Origin: Escherichia phage vB_EcoP_IMEP24
Reading direction: 5' to 3' (one strand)
Sequence record: MZ648215.1
DNA: 39,577 nt
The notes under the pieces are model-generated. The model saw only the letters and a list, made by a program, of their open reading frames with translations. It made no database searches and was not told where the DNA came from. The position numbers and the translations under genes were made by a program. This document shows, in pieces, positions 2,527 to 38,817 of the stretch. Within the stretch, counting starts at the first letter, position 1; every line of letters starts with the position of its first letter.

Positions 2527-2549
2527 ACTTAACTATCACTATAGGACTC
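2527..2549 (+). promoter_or_regulatory. Phage RNAP promoter (class II type) upstream of RNAP gene
   Basis: cttaactatcactatagga, +1 G at 2544; matches the 12-member consensus in this genome. Confidence 0.7.
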
Positions 2550-2618
2550 AAGGTCTAAGACTCCAAGTGAAAGACCAAAGAGACTTTAAGTGAAAGACTA
2601 ATAACAAGGACTTTAAGT

Positions 2619-5300
2619 ATGAGCGTCATCTCTATTGACAAACACGACTTCTCTGATGTGTCGAACGCCATTGAGCCGTTTAACCTGCTGGCTGACCACT
2701 ATGGGCAAGACCTTGCAGTCAAGCAGCTTCAGCTTGAGCATGAGGCATACACTGAAGGTGAGCGACGTTTCATTAAGAACCTTGAGCGCCAGACCGAGCG
2801 CGGGGAACTGGCAGACAATCAGGTCGCTAAACCTCTGATGCAAACGCTGGTTCCGACCATCGCTAAGGCTTTCCGTGAGTGGCATGAAGGCCCGGAAGGT
2901 AAGTCATCGACCTCGCGTCCAAGCGTAGCGTTTACCATGCTGAGCACTGACGAGAAGGCTGTAAAAGACCGCTCTCTGCTAATCTCTGCGGAGTCTGCTG
3001 CGGTTATCATACTGAAGGTCATCCTCTCCAAGCTGGTCAAGCCTGAAGGGATACCGATAACTCCTATGGCATCCGCGATAGGTCGCACACTGGAAGATGA
3101 AATCCGCTTTGGTCGCATACGTGAGCAGGAGCAGGAGCACTTCAAGAAGACCATAGCGGAGAACCTGAAGAAACGCGCTGGCGCAAGCTACAAGAAAGCC
3201 TACATGCAGGCAGTCGAGGCGTCTATGCTTGAGCAGGGGCAACTGGCTGACGCTTGGGGGACTTGGAGTCCTACCGAGGCGGTACACGTTGGCATCAAGA
3301 TGCTTGAGATTGTCATCCAGTCCACACAACTGGTCGAGCTTAAGCGTTATGGTGCTGGCAATGCGGCGGCTGACGTTGAGATGGTCCACCTGTCAGACTT
3401 CTGGGTCAAGAAGATGGCACAACGTGGATTCAGCCTTGCGGGTATCGCACCAGTCTATCAACCTTGCGTCGTTCCACCTAAGCCGTGGACGGGTGTCGTA
3501 GGCGGTGGGTACTGGGCCAAAGGTCGCAGACCGTTACCATTGATTCGCTTAGGGTCTAAGTCTGCGGTAGCACGTTACGAAGACGTGTACATGCCTGAAG
3601 TCTATGACGCTGTGAACATCATTCAGAATACACCTTGGAAAGTTAACAAGAAGGTTCTGGACGTGGTGAACATGGTCGAGAAGCTGAACAACACGCCTAT
3701 TGATGACATCCCTCAAATGGAACCACTGAAGCCTGAGGACTATGCGGGTGAGACTGAAGAAGAACTCAAGGCATGGAAGAAAGCTGCTGCTGGTATCTAT
3801 CGCCGCGAGAAGGCCCGACAGTCACGCAGATTGTCGCTGAGTTTTATCGTCAGCCAAGCGAACAAGTTCTCGCAGTTTAAGGCTATCTGGTTCCCGTACA
3901 ACATGGATTGGCGCGGTCGCGTCTACGCTGTACCGATGTTCAACCCTCAGGGTAACGACATGCAGAAAGGTCTCCTGACTCTGGCAGTCGGAAAGCCTAT
4001 TGGCGCTGATGGTTTCAAATGGCTGAAGGTCCACGGTGCAAACTGTGCGGGTGTCGATAAAGTCACCTTCGAGGAGCGCATCAAGTGGGTGGAAGACAAC
4101 CACGACAACATCATGTCTACCGCTAAGGCCCCGATGGACAGCATTGAGTGGTGGGGTAAGTTAGACTCTCCTTTCTGCTTCCTAGCGTTCTGCTTCGAGT
4201 ATGCTGGCGTAATGCATCACGGCCTGTCTTACTCCTGCTCGTTGCCGATAGCGTTCGATGGGTCCTGCTCTGGGATTCAGCACTTCAGCGCGATGCTTCG
4301 TGACCACATCGGTGGACATGCAGTAAACCTGACGCCTTCCGGTAAGGTTCAAGACATCTACCGCATCGTGTCTGACCGCATTGAGGAGGAGCTTAAAGTC
4401 CTGCTGGTTAACGGTACGGACAACGAGATGGTCACTCACGAGGATAAGAAAACTGGTGAGATTACCGAACGTCTCAAGCTGGGGACACGAGAGCTGGCCC
4501 GGCAGTGGCTGACTTACGGTATGTCACGCAAGGTAACTAAGCGTTCGGTCATGACTCTGGCCTACGGGTCGAAAGAGTACGGATTCGCAGACCAAGTTTA
4601 CGAGGACATCGTGATGCCAGCGATTGACTCAGGGTCCGGCGCTATGTTCACTGAACCAAGCCAAGCGTCTCGCTTCATGGCTAAGATGATTTGGGAAGCT
4701 GTTAGTGTGACCGTAGTTGCTGCGGTTGACGCGATGAAGTGGCTTCAAGGTGCTGCCAAGCTGCTGGCTGCTGAAGTGAAGGACAAGAAGACTGGCGAAA
4801 TCCTGAAGCCATGTCTTCCGGTACACTGGGTCACACCTGATGGTTTCCCGGTCTGGCAGGAATACCGCAAGAAAGATACCACTCGTCTGAACCTGATGTT
4901 CTTAGGGTCATTCAACCTTCAGCCTACGGTCAACAAAGGCACGAAGAAAGAGCTGGACAAGCACAAGCAGGAGTCAGGCATTAGCCCGAACTTCGTCCAC
5001 TCACAAGATGGTAGCCACCTGCGCAAGACTGTAGTCCACACGCACCGCAAGTATGGCGTGATGTCGTTCGCAGTGATCCACGATAGCTTCGGGACCATCC
5101 CGGCTGACGCTGAGTATCTGTTCCGTGGCGTCCGTGAGACAATGGTTGAGACCTACCGCGACAACGATGTGCTGCTTGACTTCTACGAGCAGTTCGAATA
5201 CCAGCTTCACGAGAGTCAGCGCGATAAGCTGCCTGAGCTTCCGAAGAAAGGTAAACTGAATATCGAAGACATCCTGTCTTCAGACTTTGCATTCGCTTAA
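2619..5300 (+). CDS. Single-subunit DNA-directed RNA polymerase (T7 gene 1 homolog)
   Basis: 893 aa; near-collinear with T7 RNAP incl. KAIWFPYNMDWRGRVYAV, HGANCAGVDK, LPxAFDGSCSGIQHFSAMLRD, VHSQDGSHLRK, IHDSFGT, C-terminal FAFA. Confidence 0.98.
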   Translation: MSVISIDKHDFSDVSNAIEPFNLLADHYGQDLAVKQLQLEHEAYTEGERRFIKNLERQTERGELADNQVAKPLMQTLVPTIAKAFREWHEGPEGKSSTSRPSVAFTMLSTDEKAVKDRSLLISAESAAVIILKVILSKLVKPEGIPITPMASAIGRTLEDEIRFGRIREQEQEHFKKTIAENLKKRAGASYKKAYMQAVEASMLEQGQLADAWGTWSPTEAVHVGIKMLEIVIQSTQLVELKRYGAGNAAADVEMVHLSDFWVKKMAQRGFSLAGIAPVYQPCVVPPKPWTGVVGGGYWAKGRRPLPLIRLGSKSAVARYEDVYMPEVYDAVNIIQNTPWKVNKKVLDVVNMVEKLNNTPIDDIPQMEPLKPEDYAGETEEELKAWKKAAAGIYRREKARQSRRLSLSFIVSQANKFSQFKAIWFPYNMDWRGRVYAVPMFNPQGNDMQKGLLTLAVGKPIGADGFKWLKVHGANCAGVDKVTFEERIKWVEDNHDNIMSTAKAPMDSIEWWGKLDSPFCFLAFCFEYAGVMHHGLSYSCSLPIAFDGSCSGIQHFSAMLRDHIGGHAVNLTPSGKVQDIYRIVSDRIEEELKVLLVNGTDNEMVTHEDKKTGEITERLKLGTRELARQWLTYGMSRKVTKRSVMTLAYGSKEYGFADQVYEDIVMPAIDSGSGAMFTEPSQASRFMAKMIWEAVSVTVVAAVDAMKWLQGAAKLLAAEVKDKKTGEILKPCLPVHWVTPDGFPVWQEYRKKDTTRLNLMFLGSFNLQPTVNKGTKKELDKHKQESGISPNFVHSQDGSHLRKTVVHTHRKYGVMSFAVIHDSFGTIPADAEYLFRGVRETMVETYRDNDVLLDFYEQFEYQLHESQRDKLPELPKKGKLNIEDILSSDFAFA

Positions 5301-5312
5301 CAGGAGAGAGTT

Positions 5313-5513
5313 ATGAAATTTGCACACAAGCAGACTGGCGTTAATGGCGGGACTCAAATCGTGACTGTAACGGAGCACAACGGGAAGGGTCTGGTGAAGA
5401 CCACGGTCATTCCTACAGAAATGGCAAAGCAGCTTAACGTACCGTTCAAGTGGCTAGTTAAGTTGGTCGAGGAGCGTCACGAGGCAGAACTTAAAGAGGC
5501 AGCAACCAAATGA
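5313..5513 (+). CDS. Hypothetical protein (66 aa)
   Basis: ORF with RBS aggagag 6 nt upstream; sits between RNAP gene and gene 1.1. Confidence 0.5.
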   Translation: MKFAHKQTGVNGGTQIVTVTEHNGKGLVKTTVIPTEMAKQLNVPFKWLVKLVEERHEAELKEAATK

Positions 5514-5591
5514 CAGACCTACAGTTACTGGCCTTGTGGCTGGGAGCACTCGCAGTATTCACTTTAATCCAACGCAGAAGAGGTTAACCTT

Positions 5592-6065
5592 ATGTTCGGT
5601 AAGTCAAAACTTGAAGCACAAATCGAGGAGTTGAGCATGAAGGTGGTATGTTTGAAGCGAGCCGTAGAGGTCCGGGACAAGGACAACGAGCGGCTGAAGG
5701 ATAAGCTCGCTGAAGCCGAGCGTAAGCGCCTAACGCCACCAGCGGCTGTAACCCTCAAGCGTATGGTCGGCATCAAGTTCAAGGCGCTGTTCGATGGTAA
5801 GTATCAGCCCACTGAGTTCAAGATAGGTCTTGGCAAGTGTGGGAAGGTGGTCAACTACTTCGAGGTGACTAAGCGTGAAGACCGGACGCTTACCATTCAC
5901 CAGTATCACACAGACGGGTCGTCTAAGGACTTCGAGTACCGACTCGGAGACATCGACGGTCGCATCCAGTATGACTACGAGCTGATGCAAGTCTACGGCG
6001 AGGAGGCAGAACGTGAGCGAGCGATTCAGGCATTCATGCAAGTAAGACCTCGCATCGTCATCTAA
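5592..6065 (+). CDS. Hypothetical protein (157 aa), coiled-coil N-terminus
   Basis: ORF; stop TAA is embedded in the downstream phage promoter; no recognised similarity. Confidence 0.55.
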   Translation: MFGKSKLEAQIEELSMKVVCLKRAVEVRDKDNERLKDKLAEAERKRLTPPAAVTLKRMVGIKFKALFDGKYQPTEFKIGLGKCGKVVNYFEVTKREDRTLTIHQYHTDGSSKDFEYRLGDIDGRIQYDYELMQVYGEEAERERAIQAFMQVRPRIVI

Positions 6066-6083
6066 ACTATCACTATAGGATTA
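6061..6083 (+). promoter_or_regulatory. Phage RNAP promoter (phi1.1-like)
   Basis: tctaaactatcactatagga, +1 G at 6078. Confidence 0.8.
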
Positions 6084-6124
6084 GACTCAAGGTCATGACT
6101 CAAAGTCGTGGCCTTCATGATTAA
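6081..6124 (+). other. RNase III-type processing hairpin (R1.1-like)
   Basis: TTAGACTCAAGGTCAT..GTGGCCTTCATGATTAA; 10-bp stem with G.U wobbles; same element recurs at 13401 and 36152. Confidence 0.5.
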
Positions 6125-6154
6125 CCCTATAACCTAAACAACTGGAGCTACAAC

Positions 6155-6334
6155 ATGTATCAGAACACTATCAACTTCGAGCGCATCCGTGAACGTCAGC
6201 AGACTGAAGATTATATTCCGAAGGGACGCAAGCTGAACAAGACCAAGCGTGGTGGTGGTGTCAAGGGTGCTTTCCGTAACGCTGAAGGTAAAGACTCTCT
6301 GGTAAACCAAGAGAAATACTTCGTAGGAGCATAA
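6155..6334 (+). CDS. Gene 1.1-like protein (59 aa)
   Basis: Below the ORF track cutoff; RBS ggag; shares KGRKLNKTKR with T7 gp1.1. Confidence 0.65.
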   Translation: MYQNTINFERIRERQQTEDYIPKGRKLNKTKRGGGVKGAFRNAEGKDSLVNQEKYFVGA

Positions 6335-6338
6335 CGCT

Positions 6339-6602
6339 ATGGGCCGACTTTATAGTGGCAACCTAAACGCTTTCAAAGCAGCGTGTAACAGGCTCTATCA
6401 GTTAGACTTCTGCGTGATACAGAAGGATTGGTACGAGGCGCATCTTCGGAAAGAGTGCATGAGACTTCAAGTCGAGGACCGAGCTGGTAACATCTTCGCG
6501 CTTAAGACCTTCGCTCACCACGATGAAGACGTACTGTACAACACTGCAACAGGCTTCCTTAACTGCCTCGCTAACCAACTCGACACATGGAGAAAATCAT
6601 AA
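6339..6602 (+). CDS. Gene 1.2 protein (host dGTPase inhibitor homolog)
   Basis: MGRLYSGNLxAFKAA...HHDEDVL matches T7 gp1.2 along whole length; 87 aa. Confidence 0.85.
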   Translation: MGRLYSGNLNAFKAACNRLYQLDFCVIQKDWYEAHLRKECMRLQVEDRAGNIFALKTFAHHDEDVLYNTATGFLNCLANQLDTWRKS

Positions 6603-7663
6603 TGACTACGACTATTAAAACTAACCCGCACCGCGCTGTAGATTACTCTGAGTCTGGCGTTAAGAAGGCTCTGGAAGCTGCTGGGTCGCTGGAAGCTGAA
6701 GTGAAGTACGATGGTGTCCGGTTGAACCTTACGGTCTTCCCTACTGGTGAGACTCAATGGCTGAGCCGTGAGTCCAAAGAGCTTCCAGCACTTCAGCATC
6801 TGAAGTCAGAACATGGGAGTCCTACCGAATTAACAAACTGTGGAGACTGGCGCTGGTTCCTGAAGCAAGCAGGACATGAGGTCTCTGGCCTGATGATTGA
6901 CGGTGAGGTCATGGTCAAGGGTGTAGACTTCAATACGTCTTCAGGTCTCATCCGAACGAAGTGGTTGAAGCAAAAGAACTTTGAGTTTTCAACTGGTGAG
7001 CACTGGGGTAAGGACAGGAAGAAAGAGAAGCTACCATTCTGTCTGGACCAGAGGTTCATCAAAGTGGTCGTCTACGGGGTCATCGACCTTAACGTCATCA
7101 CCGACCCGACAGCCGAAGGTCCTATCCATAGCGTCACACGCCTGAAGGCCGAAGCTATCGTCCCTCTCCTCCAGAAATACTTCCCTGAAATCGACTGGGT
7201 TCTGTCTGAGTCACACACGGTCTATGACCTTGAGTCGCTCAACTCCCTGTACGAACAGAAGCGTCTGGAAGGACACGAGGGTCTGGTAGTCAAGGACCCG
7301 CTTGGTAAATACAAGCGTGGCAAGAAGTCTGGCATGTGGAAAATGAAGCCTGAGGAGACCATCGACGGGACCGTGTGTGGCCTAGTGTGGGGGACTCCGG
7401 GTAAGGCCAACGAAGGTAAGGTGATTGGCTTTGAGGTTCTGCTTGAGGATGGCATGGTGGTTAACGCCTGTGGTCTGACTGAAGAACAGAAGGACGAGTT
7501 CACACTAGCTGTTAAGACTCAGGAGCTAAACGGTGACAGCCACGCCTATGAAGGATGGCAGTGTGAGGTCCTATTCATGGAGAGGTTCCCTGATGGCTCC
7601 CTTCGTCACCCTAGCTTCAAGTGCTGGCGCGGGACGGAAGACAATCCAACCGTTAAGAGCTAA
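6602..7663 (+). CDS. ATP-dependent DNA ligase (T7 gene 1.3 homolog)
   Basis: KYDGVR adenylation motif, LMIDGEVMVKGVDFNTSSGL, EGHEGLVVKDP, KRGKKSGMWKMKPE, DGSLRHPSF; start placed at ATG 6602 (MTTTIKTNP matches T7 N-terminus), overlapping 1.2 stop. Confidence 0.93.
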   Translation: MTTTIKTNPHRAVDYSESGVKKALEAAGSLEAEVKYDGVRLNLTVFPTGETQWLSRESKELPALQHLKSEHGSPTELTNCGDWRWFLKQAGHEVSGLMIDGEVMVKGVDFNTSSGLIRTKWLKQKNFEFSTGEHWGKDRKKEKLPFCLDQRFIKVVVYGVIDLNVITDPTAEGPIHSVTRLKAEAIVPLLQKYFPEIDWVLSESHTVYDLESLNSLYEQKRLEGHEGLVVKDPLGKYKRGKKSGMWKMKPEETIDGTVCGLVWGTPGKANEGKVIGFEVLLEDGMVVNACGLTEEQKDEFTLAVKTQELNGDSHAYEGWQCEVLFMERFPDGSLRHPSFKCWRGTEDNPTVKS

Positions 7664-7672
7664 CTAAACGTC

Positions 7673-7710
7673 AACCCAGTGGTCTTCGGACTGCTGGGTT
7701 TCTTTGCTTT
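7673..7710 (+). terminator. Rho-independent terminator (early terminator TE equivalent)
   Basis: AACCCAG..CTGGGTT stem followed by TTCTTTGCTTT; located right after ligase as in T7. Confidence 0.65.
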
Positions 7711-7746
7711 GTGCTAACAAGCTATCGTTTGGGGTACCAGCCTGAC

Positions 7747-7769
7747 CCTAAGCTATCACTATAGGACAA
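7747..7769 (+). promoter_or_regulatory. Phage RNAP promoter
   Basis: cctaagctatcactatagga, +1 G at 7764 (one variant base at -13). Confidence 0.7.
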
Positions 7770-7797
7770 CCATAACTTCGACCTAAGGAGGCCGACC

Positions 7798-8561: not shown

Positions 8562-8713
8562 CCGATGAGAAGAAATACATCGTGGAGCTTGAGGGTCGCG
8601 TTCAGTCCTTCGAGGTTCCGGTGTACGCAAAGTCTCTTGAAGAGGCTACCCTGAAGTCCCAAGAGTATGAGGACGCTGGGTTTGTGGTCGGACGGATTCG
8701 TCCTGAGACCTAA
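8558..8713 (+). CDS. gp2-like inhibitor of host RNA polymerase (51 aa)
   Basis: Below ORF track cutoff; [15 protein letters not shown]...[10 protein letters not shown] matches T7 gp2 core; RBS ggaaggag. Confidence 0.8.
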
Positions 8714-8731
8714 ACTATCACTGTAGGACAG
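8709..8731 (+). promoter_or_regulatory. Phage RNAP promoter (phi2.5-like), variant
   Basis: cctaaactatcactgtagga; A to G at -3; +1 G at 8726. Confidence 0.6.
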
Positions 8732-8771
8732 ACGTCAAGTTCGTAACTTTTAAATTAGGAGATTTACACAG

Positions 8772-10618: not shown

Positions 10619-10834
10619 ATGATTAAACTTATCGAATTTCTTGGTCGTCTGGTGGTGCGTGGCTATCGTCGTGCTGCGGTACTGGAACGAAAGGTAGAAA
10701 AGAAGACTGCTGACGGTGCGGCTGATGCTGCTGCTCTGGCTGACAAGCTGACCATCGCGTCACTGGAAGCTGGAATGAAGGTGCGTCAAGCTGACACCAA
10801 AGCTGACCAGTTGGCTCAGTTCTTCAAAGCCTAA
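10619..10834 (+). CDS. Hypothetical protein (71 aa), Ala-rich
   Basis: ORF with RBS aaaggaga; stop overlaps downstream promoter. Confidence 0.5.
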   Translation: MIKLIEFLGRLVVRGYRRAAVLERKVEKKTADGAADAAALADKLTIASLEAGMKVRQADTKADQLAQFFKA

Positions 10835-10852
10835 ACTATCACCTTAGGGATG
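10830..10852 (+). promoter_or_regulatory. Phage RNAP promoter, divergent variant
   Basis: cctaaactatcaccttaggga; two changes at -4/-3; +1 G at 10847. Confidence 0.45.
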
Positions 10853-10902
10853 GGACTATGAGTCCTGTCCCTTTGTTAGCATTTTTGATTAAGGAGTGAC
10901 CA

Positions 10903-11079: not shown

Positions 11080-12783
<1,704 letters not shown>

Positions 12784-12837: not shown

Positions 12838-13386
12838 ATGGAGGGTTCCATTCTAATGAGAAACTTAATCAACGGTAAGACTCTGACAGAAGTACAGCAG
12901 GTCCTTGGACCGAAGGAGGGCCTTGAGTCCTTCACTTCACGCTGCACTGGTCGGACGTTAGCTCGAGCACTACTGTTCATTTCTACAGTCATGACTCATG
13001 GTTCTCTCGACCTGAAGCCACTGCGCGGTAACTTGGGAGACCAAGAGATTGACTTGGTGAAATTCCAGATTAACCAACGTCTGGACCAGATGGGACTCGT
13101 TGGGTTCTCATGGTCTGGCGACGTTCTGAATTACTACCCGTTCGAGGAGTATCAAGATGTTAAAGAGATTGTACGTGAAGTTAAAGTCGAAGTATCACCT
13201 TTCAATGGGGAAATGGTGGCACCAAGAAGCTATGGTGTTGAGCAACATTCTGAAGGACCAGCGATTCACGTCGAAAGCGTGGAACAAAGCTACCCAGAAG
13301 TGCGCGTATCATCTAGCAAGAGTGCAGTAGTTGGTGAGATGGAAGTCTTGGAACCTCTGGTCCCGGACATGACTCCACCAGCTTAA
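12838..13386 (+). CDS. Hypothetical protein (182 aa; alternative start 12856)
   Basis: ORF in the gene 4.x slot; SD ggaggg favours ATG at 12856; no recognised similarity. Confidence 0.5.
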   Translation: MEGSILMRNLINGKTLTEVQQVLGPKEGLESFTSRCTGRTLARALLFISTVMTHGSLDLKPLRGNLGDQEIDLVKFQINQRLDQMGLVGFSWSGDVLNYYPFEEYQDVKEIVREVKVEVSPFNGEMVAPRSYGVEQHSEGPAIHVESVEQSYPEVRVSSSKSAVVGEMEVLEPLVPDMTPPA

Positions 13387-13403
13387 CTATCACTTTAGGA
13401 TAG
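13381..13403 (+). promoter_or_regulatory. Phage RNAP promoter, variant
   Basis: gcttaactatcactttagga; A to T at -3; +1 G at 13398. Confidence 0.55.
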
Positions 13404-13440
13404 ACTCAAGGTCATTCACACCGAGTGGCCTTTATGATTA
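13401..13440 (+). other. RNase III-type processing hairpin
   Basis: TAGACTCAAGGTCAT..GTGGCCTTTATGATTA; same box as 6081 and 36152. Confidence 0.5.
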
Positions 13441-13461
13441 GACTAAAGCGGAGGATTAACC

Positions 13462-17431: not shown

Positions 17432-17454
17432 ACTAAACTATCACTATAGGGACT
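17432..17454 (+). promoter_or_regulatory. Phage RNAP promoter (class III type, phi6.5-like)
   Basis: cactaaactatcactatagggac; +1 G at 17449. Confidence 0.85.
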
Positions 17455-17515
17455 TTAGGACCTAAGATATGACTATAAGATAGACTTTAGTCTTAACTTA
17501 AAGAGGAGATTCAAG

Positions 17516-18688: not shown

Positions 18689-20257
18689 ATGGCTGAACGT
18701 GAAGGGTTCGCTGCTGAAGGAGCCAAAGCGGTCTATGACCGACTGAAGAACGGTAGACAGCCATATGAGACACGCGCTCAGAACTGTGCTGCTGTCACTA
18801 TCCCGTCACTGTTTCCTAAGGAGTCCGACAACTCGTCTACTGAGTACACAACTCCGTGGCAAGCTGTAGGTGCTCGTTGTTTGAACAACTTGGCTGCAAA
18901 GCTGATGTTGGCGTTATTCCCTCAGTCACCGTGGATGCGCCTGACAGTCTCGGAATATGAGGCCAAGACCTTGAGTCAGGACTCAGAGGCTGCTGCTCGT
19001 GTTGACGAAGGGCTGGCTATGGTCGAGCGTGTGTTGATGGCCTACATGGAGACTAATAGTTTCCGTGTTCCACTGTTTGAAGCTCTGAAGCAGCTTATCG
19101 TCTCCGGTAACTGTCTGCTCTACATTCCAGAGCCTGAACAAGGTACTTACAGTCCTATGCGAATGTACCGCTTAGTGTCATACGTTGTTCAACGTGATGC
19201 TTTCGGCAACATCTTGCAGATTGTGACTCTCGACAAGGTAGCGTTTAGTGCTCTACCGGAAGACGTGAAGTCACAGCTCAACGCAGACGACTATGAGCCT
19301 GACACAGAGCTGGAAGTGTATACGCACATCTACCGTCAGGACGACGAGTATCTGCGCTACGAGGAAGTGGAAGGAATTGAGGTAGCAGGGACCGAGGGTT
19401 CTTACCCACTGACTGCATGTCCGTACATCCCGGTACGAATGGTTCGACTGGATGGTGAAGACTATGGTCGTTCTTACTGCGAGGAGTATCTTGGAGACCT
19501 GAACTCGCTGGAGACGATTACAGAAGCTATCACCAAAATGGCTAAGGTAGCCTCCAAGGTGGTGGGCCTCGTTAACCCGAACGGTATCACGCAACCTCGT
19601 CGTCTGAATAAGGCGGCTACAGGTGAGTTCGTTGCTGGTCGCGTTGAGGACATCAACTTCCTGCAACTGACGAAGGGTCAGGACTTTACGATTGCCAAGT
19701 CGGTGGCTGACGCTATCGAGCAACGTTTAGGCTGGGCCTTCCTTCTTAATAGTGCTGTTCAGCGTAATGCTGAGCGAGTAACTGCTGAAGAGATTCGTTA
19801 TGTTGCTGGCGAACTGGAGGCGACCTTAGGTGGCGTGTACTCAGTGCAATCCCAAGAGCTTCAGTTACCTATCGTCCGTGTGTTGATGAACCAGCTTCAG
19901 TCTGCTGGCATGATTCCTGACCTTCCTAAAGAAGCGGTAGAGCCTACGGTCTCCACTGGTCTGGAAGCTCTGGGCCGTGGTCAGGACTTAGAGAAGCTGA
20001 CTCAGGCGGTTAACATGATGACTGGCCTTCAGCAGCTATCTCAGGACCCGGACATCAACTTGCCGACCCTTAAGCTGCGACTTCTGAACGCTTTAGGCAT
20101 TGACACTGCTGGTCTTCTACTGACTCAGGACGAGAAGATGCAACGTATTGCTGAACAATCAGCTCAAGGAGCTGTGGTCAACGGTGCGTCTGCTGCTGGT
20201 GCTAACATGGGTGCTGCTGTAGGTCAGGGAGCTGGTGAGGACATGGCTCAAGCCTAA
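18689..20257 (+). CDS. Portal (head-to-tail connector) protein (T7 gene 8)
   Basis: YETRAQNCA, PSLFPK, TPWQAVGARxLNNLAxKLMLALFP, MYRLxSYVVQRDAFGN, RLDGEDYGRSY, VTAEEIRYVAxELExTLGGVYS; collinear with T7 gp8. Confidence 0.97.
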   Translation: MAEREGFAAEGAKAVYDRLKNGRQPYETRAQNCAAVTIPSLFPKESDNSSTEYTTPWQAVGARCLNNLAAKLMLALFPQSPWMRLTVSEYEAKTLSQDSEAAARVDEGLAMVERVLMAYMETNSFRVPLFEALKQLIVSGNCLLYIPEPEQGTYSPMRMYRLVSYVVQRDAFGNILQIVTLDKVAFSALPEDVKSQLNADDYEPDTELEVYTHIYRQDDEYLRYEEVEGIEVAGTEGSYPLTACPYIPVRMVRLDGEDYGRSYCEEYLGDLNSLETITEAITKMAKVASKVVGLVNPNGITQPRRLNKAATGEFVAGRVEDINFLQLTKGQDFTIAKSVADAIEQRLGWAFLLNSAVQRNAERVTAEEIRYVAGELEATLGGVYSVQSQELQLPIVRVLMNQLQSAGMIPDLPKEAVEPTVSTGLEALGRGQDLEKLTQAVNMMTGLQQLSQDPDINLPTLKLRLLNALGIDTAGLLLTQDEKMQRIAEQSAQGAVVNGASAAGANMGAAVGQGAGEDMAQA

Positions 20258-20275
20258 ACTATCACTATAGGAACT
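20253..20275 (+). promoter_or_regulatory. Phage RNAP promoter (phi9-like)
   Basis: gcctaaactatcactataggaac; +1 G at 20270. Confidence 0.8.
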
Positions 20276-21239: not shown

Positions 21240-21262
21240 ACTAAACTATCACTATAGGGAGA
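21240..21262 (+). promoter_or_regulatory. Phage RNAP promoter (phi10-like, full consensus)
   Basis: ctaaactatcactatagggaga; +1 G at 21257; transcript 5' end can form AGGGA/TCCCT stem. Confidence 0.9.
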
Positions 21263-21364
21263 CCAAGAGACAGACTCAAGGTTTCCCTATTACTTCAGTC
21301 CATACGGATTGGGCATACAGTAAGTAATAAACTTTATCTTTCAATTGAATAGGAGAATTATCAT

Positions 21365-22539: not shown

Positions 22540-22545
22540 TTGAAA

Positions 22546-22582
22546 CCCCTTGGGTGCCTTCGGGTGCTTGAGGGGTTTTTTT
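22546..22582 (+). terminator. Rho-independent terminator (Tphi equivalent)
   Basis: CCCCTTGGGTGCC-TTCG-GGTGCTTGAGGGG stem (13 bp incl. G.U pairs, tetraloop) followed by T7 run; resembles T7 Tphi. Confidence 0.9.
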
Positions 22583-25788: not shown

Positions 25789-25811
25789 CCTTAACTATCA
25801 CTATAGGGACT
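25789..25811 (+). promoter_or_regulatory. Phage RNAP promoter (phi13-like), inside a 12-bp inverted repeat
   Basis: ccttaactatcactatagggac; +1 G at 25806; flanked by AAGGGCCTATAG (25772-25783) and CTATAGGCCCTT (25810-25821). Confidence 0.85.
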
Positions 25812-29180: not shown

Positions 29181-29184
29181 CATA

Positions 29185-32100: not shown

Positions 32101-33072
32101 AACTACCTGTTAGATGCTGGACGTCAAGGATTCCTGTCCGACATCGTGGAGCATAGTCTGACTGGCAGTAAGCGTCGATTCGATGACCGCTGGCTGAAGA
32201 CCGCTGGTATCTCTGACGAGCAGTGGAAGGGCATTAAGTCCCTAATCCGTGAGTCAGTGACGCGTGGTCCAGACGGGAAGTACACCATCAAGGATAAGAA
32301 GGCGTTTAGTCAGGACCCAAGGGCTATGGACCTGTGGCGTATGGGTGACACCATCGCTGACGAAACGTTACTCCGGCCCCACAAGCTGTCAAACATGGAC
32401 GCCAAGGCTTATGGTCCTCTCGCTAAGACTGTCCTTCAGTTTAAGAACTTCGTCATCAAGTCCATCAATGGACGTACCATGCGAACCTTCTATAACGCCA
32501 CGAAGAACAACCGAGCGATGGACGCTGCTCTGTCCACTGTGATCTCTATGGGTCTTGCTGGTATCTACTACATGGCTCAGGCGCATGTCAAGGCTTACGC
32601 TATGCAGGATGGTCGAGACCGTGACTACCTCAAGCAAGCTCTGGACCCGACGATGATTGGATATGCAGCTCTATCACGTAGTTCACATCTTGGTGGACCA
32701 CTTGGGGTAGCTAACATTCTTGGGGGTATAGCTGGGTATGAGGACACTAAGATGCTCCGTTCGTCTATCCTACCTCGTTCTCCCACAGAGAAGCCTGAAC
32801 GTGCCATCGCGTATGGTGCAGCTACAAGTGACCCTGTGATGAATATTGTTGGTAACTTCTTGGAGCAGGTTCCAGCTTTCGGATATGCTGCTAACGTTGG
32901 CGCTTCGGCTTACAACTTGGCTGGATACCTCAAGGCCGATACTCGTGTCAACGAGCGTGACTACATGACCGGGATGTATAATACGTTCCGTGAACTGGTT
33001 CCTAACGACCCAATTACCCAGAAGCTGTTACTTGGAACGTTTGAGGAGCAAGGTATCCACATCAAGGACTAA
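29185..33072 (+). CDS. Internal virion protein D (T7 gene 16), with N-terminal domain unlike the T7 transglycosylase domain
   Basis: From about aa 190 on collinear with T7 gp16 (TGGSPxNL, AGxIGAGVDPLxYVP, RLEARETARN, VRSPTGMQSGASGK, ENPAxFG, GTYVPHVY, YGISHxxQF, GLxxNSFLEARNLFDSD, RRVNGDIAIMxxTGKTTK); N-terminal ~130 aa (MATRGIRNNNPGNIR...) diverge. Confidence 0.95.
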   Translation: MATRGIRNNNPGNIRVSKDQWEGMTGDDGAFVTFDSPESGVRALGKNLLSYGRQGYDSIEKIINRWAPPNENDTKAYIDSVVAATGIPATQSLDLSDPDTLSSLAQAISFHETGSRYDPEVYQQGVARALNGISPKTPPVSANVFDALTEGLKAKPKVALGENLPTAAGLNIEGQAPEAPNESFGEMFYKSTGETMQEREDRSTWFGFGAATEAEVKNSMVGVAVRAGQTEDSLDVIGDVFNPTRWNNHKWSREELDQIRNAGVLPQYYGVITGGSPQNLTKLINLALENQKLDQEKAKAGTGAQLAAGVIGAGVDPLTYVPIAGQVGKGGKLINKMFTVAAQSGALAGVSEMARTSVAGGDAHVAEAILGGALFGGGMTAIADGLGRALGRNTNEFAGPATRLEARETARNVDGQDLSRLPIQEGEPTFTHQGVKFADVPNEPGSVRLEDGSILIGENPLNPKTRQVFDEVIEPERAAAGVNLGGLTEIGLKLLRSENPEIRGVAADLVRSPTGMQSGASGKIGTTASDVFERLRAVDHRFYNDIDDAVTEALKDPYFQTAFWRDSGAFRQDIYQRVSMAIEDGSGNLKAELTPGELKVYDLLKNQFDAKREMMENPAMFGRTDAQSIFPGSRFKGTYVPHVYSKQMKELYIKELGSPEALQEAIKKSWLTSYASRPEVKKRVDEALLEADPTLTPEGLAAAVDKYANDKAYGISHTEQFERSSVMEENINGLVGLENNSFLEARNLFDSDMSIVLPNGQTFSVNNLREWDMDKIVPAYNRRVNGDIAIMAGTGKTTKDMKDLVETMMNKAGDDGKLKGEVSTLRDTLKILTGRARRDGADDAAFATVMRTMTDLSFFAKNAYMGVQNLTEIGGMLARGNVRAMLHGVPIFRDLAFRNKKVGASEIKDLHNVIFGKELDDSIRPSKQDVIDRLRSYSDLGRGAATALGTAKYYTGELAARSPLTKVLNGTTNYLLDAGRQGFLSDIVEHSLTGSKRRFDDRWLKTAGISDEQWKGIKSLIRESVTRGPDGKYTIKDKKAFSQDPRAMDLWRMGDTIADETLLRPHKLSNMDAKAYGPLAKTVLQFKNFVIKSINGRTMRTFYNATKNNRAMDAALSTVISMGLAGIYYMAQAHVKAYAMQDGRDRDYLKQALDPTMIGYAALSRSSHLGGPLGVANILGGIAGYEDTKMLRSSILPRSPTEKPERAIAYGAATSDPVMNIVGNFLEQVPAFGYAANVGASAYNLAGYLKADTRVNERDYMTGMYNTFRELVPNDPITQKLLLGTFEEQGIHIKD

Positions 33073-33090
33073 ACTATCACTATAGGAAAC
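33068..33090 (+). promoter_or_regulatory. Phage RNAP promoter (phi17-like)
   Basis: ctaaactatcactataggaaac; +1 G at 33085. Confidence 0.8.
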
Positions 33091-33136
33091 GGGAGGCGCT
33101 ACCATAGGTCTCCATTTAAATCACAAAGGAGGCATA

Positions 33137-35320
33137 ATGTCCACGATTACACAATTCCCTTCAGGAAACACTCAGTACAGGATTGAGTTCGACTACCTAG
33201 CCAGAACGTTTGTTGTTGTTACGCTGGTGAATAGCTATAACCCTACCATGAACCGTGTACTGGAAGTTGGTCGAGATTACCGATTCCTTAATCCAACGAT
33301 GATTGAGATGTTGGTTGACCAATCAGGTTTCGACATCGTTCGTATTCACCGTCAGACTGGAACTGACTTAGTGGTAGACTTCAGGAATGGCTCAGTGTTG
33401 ACAGCTAGTGACCTGACCAATGCAGAGCTTCAGGCTATCCATATTGCAGAAGAAGGTCGAGACCAAACGGTTGACTTAGCGAAGGAATATGCCGATGCTG
33501 CTGGTAGCTCTGCTGGCAACGCTAAGGATAGCGAGGACGAAGCACGACGAATCGCTGCGAGTATCCAGGCAGCTGGTAAAATTGGTTATATTACCCGTCG
33601 CTCCTTCGAGAAAGGCTTCAACGTTACAACATGGAACGAGGCCCTGCTATGGGAAGAGGATGGTGATTATTACCGCTGGGATGGTACGCTTCCAAAGAAC
33701 GTTCCTGCTGGTTCAACTCCTGAATCATCTGGTGGTATTGGGCTAGGTGCGTGGGTTAGTGTTGGTGATGCTTCATTACGATCGGCTCTACAGGCAGAAG
33801 ATGGTGCAAAAAATATTGGCTCTGGTAAAAGAAAGCTGATTGATAATTTGAATGACATTAAACACAGTGGTGATTATTCAACTTTACAACAGGCGATTAA
33901 TGATACCACCTCAAGGGGTCGGGTTCTTGTTTCTCCAGGCGTATATAGCGAAAGCGTTTCAACCGGCAATGCTGACATTGAGGGTTCTGGTTATGCATCT
34001 TTATTAAAAACAGGGAGTGAAGATTATGCAATTAAAGTATTACAATCAGTGCCACACTGGGAGCGTCGAAGTATTTCAAAAATAAGCCTACAAGGAACAG
34101 CAACACCTAATTCCGTGGGGGTGCTATATGACCCGGATGATATGCTCTCTGGGAGATGGGATATCAGTTATGTAGGTATGGCTGACTTTGGTGTTTGTAT
34201 TAAAAAGCCAACTGGCAATATAGGTAATACATATCAAACTGTTAACTTCAGAGCTTCTGAGTATGGGTATCGTGCTGAAAGCGTGACTGGCATGCATTCT
34301 GGCTGCGATACATTTCGTGACTGTTATTTCCAAGGGATATCCAAATACTGTATTGATATAGTGAATGCTCAAGATGGCGGTGGATCTGTGCAAATTCAAG
34401 ATAGCATCATGGAGCAATGCACTGGTGGTGGCATAAGGATTGACTATAATAACATTGTTCCTTATACACCTATTGTTATACGAAACGTATGGTTTGAACT
34501 CATTGCTACGGCATCTACCATTGACCGCGATGGTTCTGAAGAAGTTCCGAGACAGGTTAAATTAATAAACACACCACAGGCATACGTTGAAGAGTCATAC
34601 TTAACTAATATTGAATTAATTAACTCAAACTTAATTGCGCGTAACTGTCGAATTGACACTGTTAGTTCGAATATTTACAGCATGAACGTTGACGCTAATA
34701 GTTCATTTATTGTTGAGAATCTTTATGCAGGGGGGGAAGTTGGCGGAGTCCCGATTATTAAAAGCGTTGCATCTCAATCTGGATTATTTGCGAGTAGTAA
34801 CTTAAGTTTGCGTGGAACTCCCACGGTGCAAGCTATCAAGGGGGCCATGGGGTATCATGGCACTGTACGTGCAGCAGATTTATATTCAGGGGTTGTTGGT
34901 TCTACTACGTGGACATTCCCGGGCACGGAAGAAGTAACAGCAAACTGTGTAGAAGATGGAGTGGCAATTGGTTATGGTTGTGCGGAAGTATCAATCAATG
35001 CTGGGTCATCACAGTTAAGTTCAGAAATTGCCACAATAACTGCCGGGAAGTGGTATGTATGGGGGGTTAACGCTAAACTTGTTTCTGGGACAGGAAACTT
35101 TAGATTCTCAGAATATATTTCAGCAGGTGTTATCTATACACAAGACGGCAAATGGACAAGCACTTTCGGTATTGGAAAAGCGCAATCATCAGGAACAATT
35201 CGATTGTATCTTACTGCACAAACTGACACCGTTATTAGATTGCAAAACTTTTTTATTGTTGAGTTCAATACGGAGGCTGATGCTTTGGCATTTTGTAATG
35301 CGAGAGTTGCAATAGGTTAA
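33137..35320 (+). CDS. Tail fibre / tailspike (gene 17): T7-like N-terminal anchor plus probable beta-helix receptor-binding/depolymerase-type domain
   Basis: N-terminal ~150 aa match T7 gp17 anchor (FxYLARxFVVVTL, DYRF, VDFxxGSxLxAxDL, QxxHxAEExRD); remainder unrelated to T7 fibre and AT-richer. Confidence 0.9.
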   Translation: MSTITQFPSGNTQYRIEFDYLARTFVVVTLVNSYNPTMNRVLEVGRDYRFLNPTMIEMLVDQSGFDIVRIHRQTGTDLVVDFRNGSVLTASDLTNAELQAIHIAEEGRDQTVDLAKEYADAAGSSAGNAKDSEDEARRIAASIQAAGKIGYITRRSFEKGFNVTTWNEALLWEEDGDYYRWDGTLPKNVPAGSTPESSGGIGLGAWVSVGDASLRSALQAEDGAKNIGSGKRKLIDNLNDIKHSGDYSTLQQAINDTTSRGRVLVSPGVYSESVSTGNADIEGSGYASLLKTGSEDYAIKVLQSVPHWERRSISKISLQGTATPNSVGVLYDPDDMLSGRWDISYVGMADFGVCIKKPTGNIGNTYQTVNFRASEYGYRAESVTGMHSGCDTFRDCYFQGISKYCIDIVNAQDGGGSVQIQDSIMEQCTGGGIRIDYNNIVPYTPIVIRNVWFELIATASTIDRDGSEEVPRQVKLINTPQAYVEESYLTNIELINSNLIARNCRIDTVSSNIYSMNVDANSSFIVENLYAGGEVGGVPIIKSVASQSGLFASSNLSLRGTPTVQAIKGAMGYHGTVRAADLYSGVVGSTTWTFPGTEEVTANCVEDGVAIGYGCAEVSINAGSSQLSSEIATITAGKWYVWGVNAKLVSGTGNFRFSEYISAGVIYTQDGKWTSTFGIGKAQSSGTIRLYLTAQTDTVIRLQNFFIVEFNTEADALAFCNARVAIG

Positions 35321-35332
35321 CTTGACATCCTC

Positions 35333-35357
35333 CACGCCCTAAAGGGCGGGGCTTTTC
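35333..35357 (+). terminator. Putative weak rho-independent terminator after gene 17
   Basis: CGCCC-TAAA-GGGCG hairpin followed by GCTTTTC; only four T. Confidence 0.4.
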
Positions 35358-35370
35358 GGATAATTATTGA

Positions 35371-35457
35371 TCAGAACGGGATATCGTCATCGAAGTCCAT
35401 TGGCGGCTCATTACCTCCTTGTGGGCTTTGTTGTTTTGGTGGCTGATGTTGTCGTTG
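35371..35457 (-). pseudogene. Fragment homologous to the 3' end of a bacterial ssb gene (SSB C-terminal tail), antisense to phage genes
   Basis: Minus-strand translation QRQHQPPKQQSPQGGNEPPMDFDDDIPF-stop; last 13 residues equal the recalled E. coli SSB C-terminus (SNEPPMDFDDDIPF); in-frame stop directly upstream, no OB-fold region. Confidence 0.6.
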
Positions 35458-35693
35458 CTAAAAACCATCAAATATCAAAGGCTCTGATGGTTCCCATCTC
35501 TTTACTCTGACTACTGATGACGTAACTGTTAAAGACGTTAATGTGGTTACGACCCTTACTGCTGCCTCTGTGCCATTGGAGTCCTGAACCGGGTAGAGGA
35601 TCGAATGTTGTGGAGGTAGAGGCGAACTACACGCTGACCAACGTATGGTAACAACTTTGGGTCACGGACGACCCGCTTTAAACTGGAGGTTTT

Positions 35694-35888
35694 ATGATTG
35701 AGTTAGACTTCAAGAATGAGGTCCTTAAAGCCTCTCCTATCGTCGGGACCGCTGCGGCTGATGGTGCCAGTCGGTTCTTCTTCGGACTTACACTGAACGA
35801 ATGGTTCTACGTTGCAGCTATCGCGTACACCGTTGTCCAGATTGGTGTGCTAGTCTACAAAACGATTAAAGGAGGTGGTAAAACATGA
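35694..35888 (+). CDS. Class II holin (T7 gene 17.5)
   Basis: LDFxNExxKAxPIVGT, FFGLxLNEWFYVAAIAYTVVQIG matches T7 gp17.5; RBS ggagg. Confidence 0.92.
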   Translation: MIELDFKNEVLKASPIVGTAAADGASRFFFGLTLNEWFYVAAIAYTVVQIGVLVYKTIKGGGKT

Positions 35889-36148
35889 CGCAGATGGACT
35901 TAGAGAAGTTCCTCTTAATGCTAGATACTGAACGTGCTCGACTCATGCTGCAAGACCTGCGGGATGACACTAAGCGTTCACCTCAGCTCTACAACGCCAT
36001 TGAGAAGCTACTTGCTCGTCACAACTTTGTGTTAAGCAAGGTGTCTGTGGACGAGAAGACGCTGGCTGATATGGAGGCCCTGAACGCAGAGTACGATAAG
36101 GTGCTTTCAGCGACTGAGGATAATGACACCGGGTATGGCGTTCAATAA
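35885..36148 (+). CDS. Terminase small subunit (T7 gene 18)
   Basis: FLxMLDT, RRSPQLYNAIxKLLxRH match T7 gp18; ATG overlaps holin stop. Confidence 0.85.
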   Translation: MTQMDLEKFLLMLDTERARLMLQDLRDDTKRSPQLYNAIEKLLARHNFVLSKVSVDEKTLADMEALNAEYDKVLSATEDNDTGYGVQ

Positions 36149-36151
36149 GTG

Positions 36152-36190
36152 TTAGACTCAAGGTCATCGTCAGGTGGCCTTTATGATTAA
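36152..36190 (+). other. RNase III-type processing hairpin (R18.5-like)
   Basis: TTAGACTCAAGGTCAT..GGTGGCCTTTATGATTAA; third copy of the box. Confidence 0.5.
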
Positions 36191-36204
36191 CATTAGGAGG
36201 GTTT

Positions 36205-36480
36205 ATGACTAAGATAATGGAACGCAGAGCTGCCTATTATAAGCAGGTATACAAGGTGGACTTACAGACTCTAATTGGTATTCTAAAAGAGCAGGGAGGC
36301 TATGAGATATGTGGAAAGAGTATCTCTTTTGAAGGTGCAAAGGTAACAGCTCGCGTGGACCACTGCCACTCTACTGGAGCTATACGTGGTATTATATGCA
36401 ATAGGTGTAATCAGGCACTTGGTATGTTTGGAGATAACGTAGAGGGCATCTACAAGCTCTTAGCATACCTAGGCAAATAG
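36205..36480 (+). CDS. Endonuclease VII-like HNH nuclease (91 aa)
   Basis: DHCHSTGAIRGIICNRCNQALGMFGDN is the His-Me finger motif of the T4 endo VII family (DHDH..G.VRGLLC..CN..G); RBS taggaggg. Confidence 0.75.
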   Translation: MTKIMERRAAYYKQVYKVDLQTLIGILKEQGGYEICGKSISFEGAKVTARVDHCHSTGAIRGIICNRCNQALGMFGDNVEGIYKLLAYLGK

Positions 36481-36490
36481 GAGGGCAACT

Positions 36491-36940
36491 ATGCTCGAAT
36501 TTTTAAAGAGAGCGGCTCCGTGGTTACTTGCAGCAGTGATGTTTGCTGGTGGCTACCACACCGCTAACAATAAGTGGGAGGCTAAGGTAAATGCAGAATA
36601 TACCTCGAACCTTAAGGCATCGGAGGATACAAGGCTTGCTGTCCAAGCTGAAGTCAACAAAGTGTCCAAACGGTTTCAGGACGAAATGTCCTCGCTGGAA
36701 GGCAGCACTGATAGGATTATTGCTGACCTTCAGTCTGACAATAAGCGGCTGCGCATCCGAGTCAAACCTACGAGTGGAACCACGCAAAGTGACGGTCGAT
36801 GCGTCATTGATGGTTACGCCGAACTTGACGAACGAGATGCTAAACGTCTTGTCGCCATCGGACTAAAAGGAGATAAATGGATTAAGGCACTTCAGGACAC
36901 TGTGAGAGCCTTGCAGCAAGATAAGGAGGTGACGCATTGA
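36491..36940 (+). CDS. Rz-like i-spanin (T7 gene 18.5)
   Basis: MLEFL N-terminal TM, [24 protein letters not shown], DxRDAKRL, WIxALQDTxRxLQ match T7 gp18.5. Confidence 0.92.
36591..36866 (+). CDS. Rz1-like o-spanin lipoprotein embedded in +1 frame of Rz (T7 gene 18.7); true start probably internal
   Basis: [25 protein letters not shown] lipobox-like signal and SLMVxPNLTxEMLNV match T7 gp18.7. Confidence 0.75.
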   Translation: MQNIPRTLRHRRIQGLLSKLKSTKCPNGFRTKCPRWKAALIGLLLTFSLTISGCASESNLRVEPRKVTVDASLMVTPNLTNEMLNVLSPSD

Positions 36941-38700
36941 GTAAAGACTTAGTGGCGCGTCAGGCGCTAATGACTGCCCGTATGAAGGCAGACTTCGTGT
37001 TCTTCCTGTTCGTTCTATGGAAAGCTCTGTCACTCCCAGTCCCGACTCGCTGTCAGATTGACATGGCGAAGAAACTATCGGCTGGGAACAACAGGCGTTT
37101 CATCCTACAGGCGTTCCGTGGTATCGGGAAGTCCTTCATTACGTGTGCCTTCGTGGTATGGAAGCTATGGAATAACCCAGACTTGAAGTTCATGATTGTG
37201 TCGGCCTCAAAGGAACGAGCCGATGCGAACTCCATCTTCATCAAGCGAATCATCGACCTCATGCCTCAGCTTCAGGAACTAAAACCTAAGCAGGGACAAA
37301 GGGATGCTGTTATCAGCTTCGACGTTGGGCCAGCCAAGCCAGACCACTCACCCTCGGTTAAGTCCGTTGGTATCACTGGTCAGTTGACTGGTAGTCGTGC
37401 TGACATCCTGATTGCCGATGACGTGGAGGTTCCTAACAACTCTGCTACTCAGGCTGCGCGAGACCGTCTGTCAGAGCTTGTGAAAGAGTTCGACGCTATC
37501 CTGAAGCCGGGAGGTACAATCATCTATCTGGGTACTCCTCAGAACGAGATGACACTGTATCGTGAGCTTGAAGGTCGTGGGTATACCACTACTATCTGGC
37601 CAGCTCGTTATCCACGCGACAGGAAGGACTGGCAGTCTTACGGAGACCGTCTGGCTCCTATGCTTCAGGCAGAGCTTGAAGAGGACCCTGAGTCCTTCTA
37701 CTGGCGTCCGACTGATGAAGTACGCTTCGATGACACTGACCTGAAGGAACGTGAGCTGTCCTATGGTAAAGCTGGCTTCGCTCTACAGTTCATGCTTAAC
37801 CCAAACCTGAGTGATGCTGAGAAGTACCCTCTGAAGCTCCGTGACCTTATCGTAGCTGACTTGGACCCAGCGTCCAGCCCAATGGTCTACCAATGGTTGC
37901 CGAACCCTCAGAACAAGCGTGAGGACGTTCCTAACGTTGGACTTATGGGTGACTCATACCACACGTATCAGACTGTAGGTTCTGCCTTCAGCTCGTACAC
38001 CCAGAAGATTCTGGTAATTGACCCTAGTGGTCGTGGTAAGGATGAAACTGGTTATGCGGTACTGTATCAGCTCAACGGCTACATCTTCGCTATGGAAGTT
38101 GGTGGTATGCGTGGTGGTTATGAAGACTCTACGCTGGAAGCCTTGGCTAAGATTGGTCGTAAGTGGAAGGTCAACGAATACGTCATTGAGGGTAACTTCG
38201 GTGATGGTATGTACCTTGAGCTATTCAAGCCTGTAGCGGCCCGTATCCATCCTGCGGCTGTAACTGAAGTGAAGAGTAAGGGTCAGAAAGAACTCCGCAT
38301 CTGTGACGTTCTGGAGCCTATCATGGGGTCTCACCGACTTATCGTTAACGCTGCTGCTATCGTCCAAGACTACCAGACAGCCTCTGACAAGGATGGTGTG
38401 CGCAACCCTATCTATTCTCTCTTCTATCAGATGACCCGTATCTCTCGCGAACGTGGGGCCTTGGCACATGATGACCGACTTGATGCGCTGGCTATCGGTG
38501 TACAGTTCTTCGTTGAGTCTATGGCGAAGGATGCCAACAAAGGCGAACGTGAAGTCACTGAGGAGTGGCTGGAGGAACAGATGGAGAACCCACGGAAAGG
38601 CTTCGAGTCCATCCACACTGAGTTCTGGGACAATGGGGTCCGGGTAACTCATGATACGGACGACGAGCTGGGACTAGGGTCATACGTTACGTTCCACTAG
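36937..38700 (+). CDS. Terminase large subunit (T7 gene 19), TTG start
   Basis: [26 protein letters not shown], [16 protein letters not shown] (Walker A), [16 protein letters not shown], [20 protein letters not shown], [38 protein letters not shown]; collinear with T7 gp19. Confidence 0.96.
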
Positions 38701-38794
38701 CTGAATGAATAACTATGGGTGAAAGCTGCATGAATACGCGGTTAGTAACCTATAGTTACTACCAGTCTAACCTACTGTTTTACAAGGAGTTTGG

Positions 38795-38817
38795 ACTTAA
38801 CTATCACTATAGGGAAG
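38795..38817 (+). promoter_or_regulatory. Phage RNAP promoter (right-end phiOR-like)
   Basis: gacttaactatcactatagggaag; +1 G at 38812. Confidence 0.85.

Follow-up and report, generated by a model that had tools for sequence, protein, structure and literature searches.

Twelve K1F-class promoters and their predicted phage-encoded RNA polymerase in Escherichia phage vB_EcoP_IMEP24

Phage RNA polymerases (RNAPs) have been grouped by their specificity hairpin, with one consensus "binding region" assigned to each subfamily (Temme et al. 2012, PMC3458549), and K1F is one of the large natural clusters of residue and base combinations at positions 748, 756 and 758 (PMC11880802). Here we analyze a stretch of 39,577 nucleotides from Escherichia phage vB_EcoP_IMEP24 (sequence record MZ648215.1; hereafter the window, meaning the whole stretch), in which twelve copies of a 23-bp element almost certainly make up the full promoter set of the phage-encoded RNAP (gp1) in a Kayfunavirus genome, and belong to the K1F specificity class.

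Published experiments describe this class in some detail. Grafting the K1F hairpin into T7 RNAP gave 17-fold activation of a predicted K1F promoter, and the resulting T7(K1F-loop) RNAP was orthogonal in vivo to the T7, T3 and N4 pairs (Temme et al. 2012, PMC3458549). The K1F-loop variant of T7 RNAP (754S/756N/761V) has ACTAT as its cognate sequence at -12 to -8, the same as the core in the window (Table 2, PMC11880802), so that chimera and window pair the same loop residues with the same core; unlike the window, the chimera has a T7 backbone and its promoter the T7 flank TAAT at -17 to -14, without the native NCTWA region or the native N-terminal domain. Closer still is phage Ro45lw, whose purified RNAP transcribes ACTTAACTATCACTATAGGGACT in vitro, from a +1 G located by deep sequencing of RNA 5' ends, and trimming left ACTTAACTATCACTATAGGGA as the minimal promoter (Takatsuki et al. 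2025, PMC12272871). The Ro45lw enzyme is 96% identical to that of the window and has the same loop residues, and its tested promoter departs from one window site, phi13, only at -17, whereas its own phi1 and phi4 are the variants CACTAAAGG and CACCTAAGG. A 2026 Kayfunavirus genome paper gives the consensus CTWAACTATCACTATAGG, the same as that of the window, as promoter sites (PMC13298934).

The twelve sites are as follows, with identities to the annotated promoters of phage EcoDS1 (EU734172) and to sites in phage K1F (DQ111067) where they help to identify a site; every +1 G falls where an earlier sequence-only reading of the window had put it.

2527..2549, plus strand: phi1, +1 G at 2544, ACTTAACTATCACTATAGGACTC, 75 nt upstream of the RNAP gene; the same as EcoDS1 'phi' 2244-2266 and K1F site 2491
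6061..6083, plus strand: phi1.1, +1 at 6078, TCTAAACTATCACTATAGGATTA, overlapping the gene 1.05 stop codon, with a leader hairpin; the same as EcoDS1 6034-6056
7747..7769, plus strand: phi1.6, +1 at 7764, CCTAAGCTATCACTATAGGACAA, with G at -12; the same as EcoDS1 phi1.6
8709..8731, plus strand: phi2.5, +1 at 8726, CCTAAACTATCACTGTAGGACAG, with G at -3; the same as EcoDS1 phi2.5
10830..10852, plus strand: promoter before gene 4 (phi4), +1 at 10847, CCTAAACTATCACCTTAGGGATG, with C at -4 and T at -3 and a strong 5' leader hairpin; the same as EcoDS1 11107-11129
13381..13403, plus strand: phi5, +1 at 13398, GCTTAACTATCACTTTAGGATAG, accompanying orf182; none in K1F or EcoDS1, the same in SH3 and MopsHU1
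17432..17454, plus strand: phi6.5, +1 at 17449, ACTAAACTATCACTATAGGGACT
20253..20275, plus strand: phi9, +1 at 20270, CCTAAACTATCACTATAGGAACT, overlapping the gene 8 stop codon
21240..21262, plus strand: phi10, +1 at 21257, ACTAAACTATCACTATAGGGAGA, preceding the major capsid gene, with a structured leader
25789..25811, plus strand: phi13, +1 at 25806, CCTTAACTATCACTATAGGGACT, one difference (-17) from the Ro45lw in vitro promoter
33068..33090, plus strand: phi17, +1 at 33085, ACTAAACTATCACTATAGGAAAC, overlapping the gene 16 stop codon
38795..38817, plus strand: phiOR, +1 at 38812, ACTTAACTATCACTATAGGGAAG, downstream of gene 19; named phiOR in EcoDS1

A search for CTAAACTATCACTATAGG allowing up to 3 mismatches returned exactly 12 matches in the window, each with 0-2 mismatches and all on the plus strand, compared with a mean of 0.02 matches in dinucleotide-preserving shuffles, 0 of 100 of which reached 12. 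The sequence-only reading had proposed a position weight matrix (PWM) scan of the genome as a check. With a PWM derived from the twelve sites and scanned against both strands of the window, these sites scored 30.7-36.5 bits and the next best 15.3 bits, a gap which indicates that the promoter set is complete and sharply bounded. A candidate thirteenth promoter at 17478 (15 bits) was rejected for its mismatches at -11, -10, -7 and +2, which include the invariant C-7 and G+2. This degenerate promoter-like 23-mer (CCTAAGATATGACTATAAGATAG, 17461-17483, ~15 bits) follows the phi6.5 start at a distance of 29 nt, and EcoDS1 and K1F have it unchanged; it probably represents a tandem copy of a promoter that has decayed, or else a piece of a leader hairpin.

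Across the extracted -17 to +6 interval, all twelve sites agree at positions -16, -15, -13, -11 to -5 and -2 to +2. Position -12 is A at 11 of 12, with G only at phi1.6, so that the K1F-class core ACTAT stands at -12 to -8 in all sites except phi1.6, which reads GCTAT here and likewise in EcoDS1 and K1F. An element of ~23 bp (-17 to +6) with a CACTATAGG-type initiation core, in many copies per genome, is what is found in the T7 supergroup, and the placement of the sites agrees with this: each is co-oriented with the genes, is either intergenic or overlaps just the last 5-6 nt of the preceding open reading frame (ORF), and lies 34-186 nt from the next start codon, and eleven of them correspond to T7 promoter positions (phi1.1, 1.6, 2.5, 3.8, 4.7, 6.5, 9, 10, 13, 17 and OR). 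We also observed that in half of the sites (6 of 12; 6061-6065, 8709-8713, 10830-10834, 13381-13386, 20253-20257 and 33068-33072) the upstream gene ends in a TAA stop codon that lies inside promoter positions -15 to -12, the same economy as that of the TAA in T7 promoters.

These promoters recur across the genus. The EcoDS1 record carries eleven annotated "phi" promoters, all of them base-for-base identical to eleven of the window 23-mers (-17 to +6) and located in the same gene intervals. Our own scan of the K1F genome found 11 syntenic sites, 8 of which are identical over -17 to +6 and 3 of which have 1-3 changes outside the -16 to +2 core. By sequence search rather than PWM, the complete genomes of yong1, Ro45lw, SH3, Dev2, MopsHU1 and vB_EcoP_F have 11-12 such sites each, all on the plus strand, bringing the number of complete kayfunavirus genomes with 11-12 sites to eight, while the T7, T3 and K11 loci have zero. 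Several of the sites are annotated as promoters in the Ro45lw record. The core 15-mer AACTATCACTATAGG occurs in at least 120 IMG/VR stretches, mostly contigs of 39-41 kb, although single matches on contigs of other sizes may be chance.

EcoDS1 and K1F also share with the window the specificity loop of the RNAP, the gene order, the places of the early and late terminators and a promoter just upstream of gene 1, but they differ from it in lacking phi5 and the adjacent ORF of 182 amino acids (aa). This orf182 (12838-13386) has no Pfam match and is followed directly by phi5, the two forming a cassette at 12838-13403. K1F and EcoDS1 lack this cassette; SH3 and MopsHU1 have it with phi5 unchanged, and Dev2 and Ro45lw have it with phi5 as the variant CACTGTA. 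Because only some kayfunaviruses have the pair, phi5 is best regarded as part of a variable cassette and not as unique to the window phage.

The window itself is the complete genome of a K1F-like (Kayfunavirus) member of the T7 supergroup. Its ends are an exact 184-bp direct repeat at both termini, and its large ORFs all lie on the plus strand in T7 gene order. The best nucleotide matches include the kayfunaviruses Hafnia phage yong1, P762, vB_EcoP_F, EcoDS1 and K1F, which cover about 90% of the first 25 kb at about 92-94% identity and have a collinear gene order; none of the best-matching whole-genome records listed reached 95% identity.

The predicted reader of the sites is encoded in the same genome, as in the T7 supergroup, and its recognition loop could be located within the gene:

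2619..5300, plus strand: gene 1, single-subunit T7-like RNA polymerase of 893 aa, predicted reader of the twelve sites
4878..4931, plus strand: specificity loop TTRLNLMFLGSFNLQPTV (T7 residues 744-761), of K1F type with S754, N756 and V761

The gene product, gp1, matches the Pfam families RNA_pol (1.4e-106) and RPOL_N and aligns over its full length with T7 RNAP crystal-structure sequences (E = 0). Its identity is 63.6% to the T7 enzyme, 63.4% to T3 and 59.6% to K11, as against 97.5% to K1F gp1 and 97.6% to EcoDS1 gp1. In the T7 RNAP-promoter structure, residues R746, N748, R756 and Q758 make base-specific hydrogen bonds (PMC11880802). Inspection of the loop, a check which the sequence-only reading had also named, showed that gp1 differs from T7 by Q744T, Q754S, R756N and I761V and keeps R746, N748 and Q758. 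From T7 residue 739 to residue 770, K1F, EcoDS1 and the window share one sequence, YRKKDTTRLNLMFLGSFNLQPTVNKGTKKELD, which makes the loop one of K1F type. Among nine kayfunavirus RNAPs (95-98% identical), the 744-761 hairpin is invariant except at the equivalent of T7 M750, with the base-contacting residues unchanged in all nine. The C-terminal two-fifths of gp1, specificity loop included, is identical to K1F gp1, and 17 of the 22 amino-acid differences between the two enzymes fall in the N-terminal domain (alignment columns 80-220), close to the AT-rich recognition loop or beyond it; promoter bases -17 to -13 show no co-variation with these N-terminal differences.

The sequence-only reading had claimed that -11 to -9 read CTA in place of T7 GAC and that the -8 to +2 block is T7-like; alignment bears out both, with TCACTATAGG identical in window and T7, and adds that -12 (A vs. 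C in T7) and -17 to -14 differ too. Window and T7 class II/III promoters have in common the 23-bp architecture from -17 to +6, 11 shared placements and a Tphi terminator after gene 10, but they differ at -12 to -9 (ACTA in the window vs. CGAC in T7), at -17 to -14 (NCTW vs. TAAT) and in number (12 vs. 17), and T7 has a phiOL where the window instead has a phage promoter directly before gene 1, with RNAPs that are just 64% identical and differ by R756N. The T3 and K11 promoters are of the same family. T3 resembles the window in A at -12 and C at -11, but it pairs ACCCT with D748, and K11 pairs GGGCA with K748, N756 and K758, whereas the window pairs ACTAT with N748, N756 and Q758. Scored on the window PWM, the class consensus sequences reach only -2.2 (T7), 11.0 (T3), 2.2 (K11) and -0.1 bits (SP6), which sets the window sites outside all four classes.

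Of the alternatives to a K1F-class promoter set, the one that survives best, although we consider it very unlikely, is that the sites are interchangeable with those of T7, read well by T7 RNAP and without real change in specificity. The shared -8 to +2 block and the retention of R746, N748 and Q758 speak for such a reading, and appreciable non-cognate activity was reported for the Temme set (PMC11880802). Yet the loop changes R756N, Q754S and I761V accompany four changed bases at -12 to -9, the T7 and T7(K1F) RNAP-promoter pairs were orthogonal in Temme et al. 2012 (PMC3458549), and the two promoter types do not cross-match in either direction: with up to 3 mismatches allowed, the T7 consensus matches nowhere in the window and the window consensus nowhere in T7.

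There is even less to be said for the sites being dispersed repeats with a role in RNA processing, replication or recombination, their likeness to T7 promoters vestigial, a reading to which we give hardly any weight. Conserved RNase III-like hairpins do follow several of the sites, and promoters of the phiOR and phi1.1 types double as replication origins in T7. A non-promoter role, however, accounts poorly for strict conservation over 23 bp including the TATAGG initiation region, for the uniform strand and intergenic placement before gene blocks, for a cognate RNAP encoded in the genome, or for in vitro initiation on the same sequence by a 96%-identical enzyme; moreover, the hairpin-forming sequence downstream of phi5 is still kept in K1F and EcoDS1, which have no phi5 promoter, indicating that hairpin and promoter are separable.

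Finally, that the promoters represent a new polymerase specificity, unseen in any characterized phage, fits a core unlike T7, T3 and K11 at -12 to -8 and the low scores (-2 to 11 bits) that the window PWM gives to the T7, T3, K11 and SP6 consensus sequences, but is refuted by identity with K1F, EcoDS1 and Ro45lw, given a specificity loop identical to those of K1F and EcoDS1, eleven 23-mers that are annotated EcoDS1 promoters, a core (ACTAT) published for the K1F class and found as a 15-mer in those many IMG/VR stretches, and prior in vitro use of the same promoter with Ro45lw RNAP. The suggestion that this polymerase probably has its own specificity is supported, with a caveat: loop residues and consensus scores do set it apart from T7, T3 and K11, but the specificity is that of the K1F/Kayfunavirus class and not this phage's own.

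Some points weigh against the assignment of the twelve sites to gp1 as a K1F-class set. The same source that noted non-cognate activity in the Temme set calls its orthogonality modest, with a ratio of 8 (PMC11880802), and those data were obtained with a chimera, T7 RNAP bearing the K1F loop, and not with a native enzyme. Start sites and relative strengths in the window are carried over from relatives. In addition, N748 is kept although -11 and -10 differ from T7, so that simple T7 rules leave the read-out of C-11/T-10 unexplained, a puzzle that concerns the whole K1F class and not the window in particular.

How the set would work can be proposed by analogy with T7, using the following additional elements of the window:

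578-607 and 726-754: sigma70-like promoters with perfect TTGACA boxes
7673..7700, plus strand: early terminator TE, a 12-bp stem and T run after the ligase gene, at the position of the annotated EcoDS1 TE
22542..22579, plus strand: late terminator Tphi, a 17-bp stem and T run after gene 10 (capsid), at the position annotated in EcoDS1 and Ro45lw and that of T7 Tphi

Host RNA polymerase would first act at the sigma70-type promoters near 578-754 and transcribe the early region with gene 1 in it, after which newly made gp1 would bind each 23-bp element and start RNA at the +1 G, the resulting nested rightward transcripts covering the DNA-metabolism, virion and packaging genes. If gp1 engages DNA as in the T7 RNAP-promoter complex, its N-terminal AT-rich recognition loop would read -17 to -13 (NCTWA) in the minor groove and its specificity loop -12 to -7 in the major groove, with TATA at -4 to -1 melted and synthesis proceeding from G+1. 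At -12 to -8, ACTAT would stand in for T7 CGACT, matched by the K1F-type loop; here R756N would remove the arginine that in T7 reads the G:C pair at -9, in keeping with the C-to-A change at that position. Termination by gp1 at Tphi (22542-22579) would be partial.

As the sequence-only reading had noted, three sites carry changes at -4/-3 (8726 CACTGTA, 10847 CACCTTA and 13398 CACTTTA). They stand in front of class II-type genes of DNA metabolism, namely 2.5, 4 and 5. Throughout the genus these three promoters depart from consensus at -4/-3, though not always with the same base: for phi2.5, the window shares CACTGTA with EcoDS1, K1F and Ro45lw but Dev2 has CACTTTA (T at -3), phi4 is CACCTTA in most genomes but CACCTAA in Ro45lw, and phi5 is either CACTTTA or CACTGTA. 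This conserved departure from consensus suggests selection for attenuated promoters, as in T7 class II; it is plausible that the variants are weaker than the other sites, and they probably act as class II-like promoters of lower strength. A further proposed rule, that sites before late genes begin with GGGA and earlier ones mostly with GGA, held only as a tendency: the six late or right-end sites include four with GGGA (phi6.5, phi10, phi13 and phiOR, with GGAA at phi9 and phi17) and the six early or middle sites include one (10847), a weak association (Fisher's exact p = 0.24).

When eight of the leaders were folded, those from 6078, 10847 and 21257 were clearly structured and the remainder did not differ from shuffled sequence. 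Directly behind several promoters the leaders form stable hairpins, with z-scores of -2.2 for 6078-6150, -3.6 for 10847-10902, -1.3 for 13398-13460 and -2.9 for 21257-21364. The motif GACTCAAGGTCAT recurs downstream of 6078 and 13398 and, in partial form, downstream of 2544 and 21257. These features resemble T7 RNase III sites and 5' stabilizing stem-loops.

Elsewhere in the window, a perfect 15-bp tandem repeat (AGTCCAACAACCTAC, 5.3 copies, 200-278) starts 16 bp past the 184-bp terminal repeat, and a similar 15-bp unit is reported for the ends of the Kayfunavirus Sparklingdew genome (PMC13298934). The 186-aa product of an early gene (1275-1835) contains an anti-restriction domain of the DNA-mimic Ocr type (Pfam ocr, 1.6e-31) and is longer than EcoDS1 gp0.3 (110 aa) and near K1F gp0.3 (169 aa) in length. 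In gp17 (33137-35320), a T7 tail-fibre N-terminal domain is followed by Tail_spike_N (TSP1/Gp66) in place of the K1F endosialidase, and between 34 and 36 kb the GC content drops to 0.433; the domain make-up and local GC drop together suggest an exchanged receptor-binding module and a non-K1 host.

Since the same promoters have been annotated or characterized in K1F-class phages, the finding is correct but already known: annotations of the K1F-type promoter and polymerase pair go back to the EcoDS1 and K1F genomes, synthetic biologists use the pair as an orthogonal part, and work on a sister phage has characterized it in vitro. New here is no more than the genome in which it occurs, which shares about 92-94% identity with the best whole-genome matches listed. 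The practical value is therefore one of annotation, in the form of a complete, well-bounded transcription map (12 promoters, TE and Tphi), and the RNAP of the window should work with existing K1F and Ro45lw promoter parts. Taken together, an ACTAT core and a K1F-type loop with R756N point to a class that is probably orthogonal to T7, T3 and K11 and yet common to the whole genus.

The arrangement at gene 1 bears on how this genus may time its transcription. T7, T3 and K11 have a phiOL near the left end instead of a promoter directly before gene 1, whereas no phiOL equivalent was detected in the left 2.5 kb of the window, where the PWM found nothing above 8 bits. The phi1 site upstream of gene 1 is kept in EcoDS1 (annotated 'phi'), K1F, yong1, SH3, MopsHU1 and vB_EcoP_F, with Ro45lw and Dev2 carrying the CACTAAAGG variant. 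Its location, 75 nt ahead of the RNAP gene, predicts that gene 1 is under positive autoregulation. We raise tentatively, as a possibility rather than an expectation, that gene 1 is autocatalytic via phi1, a feedback absent from T7, T3 and K11, and that together with attenuated phi2.5, phi4 and phi5 this would give temporal control unlike that of T7. Both the promoter before gene 1 and the non-consensus class II promoters are genus-wide, and functional tests of them were not found in the literature as far as we searched. If both the phi1 feedback and the attenuated promoters are functional, the temporal-control logic of the genus would differ from that of T7 despite near-identical hardware.

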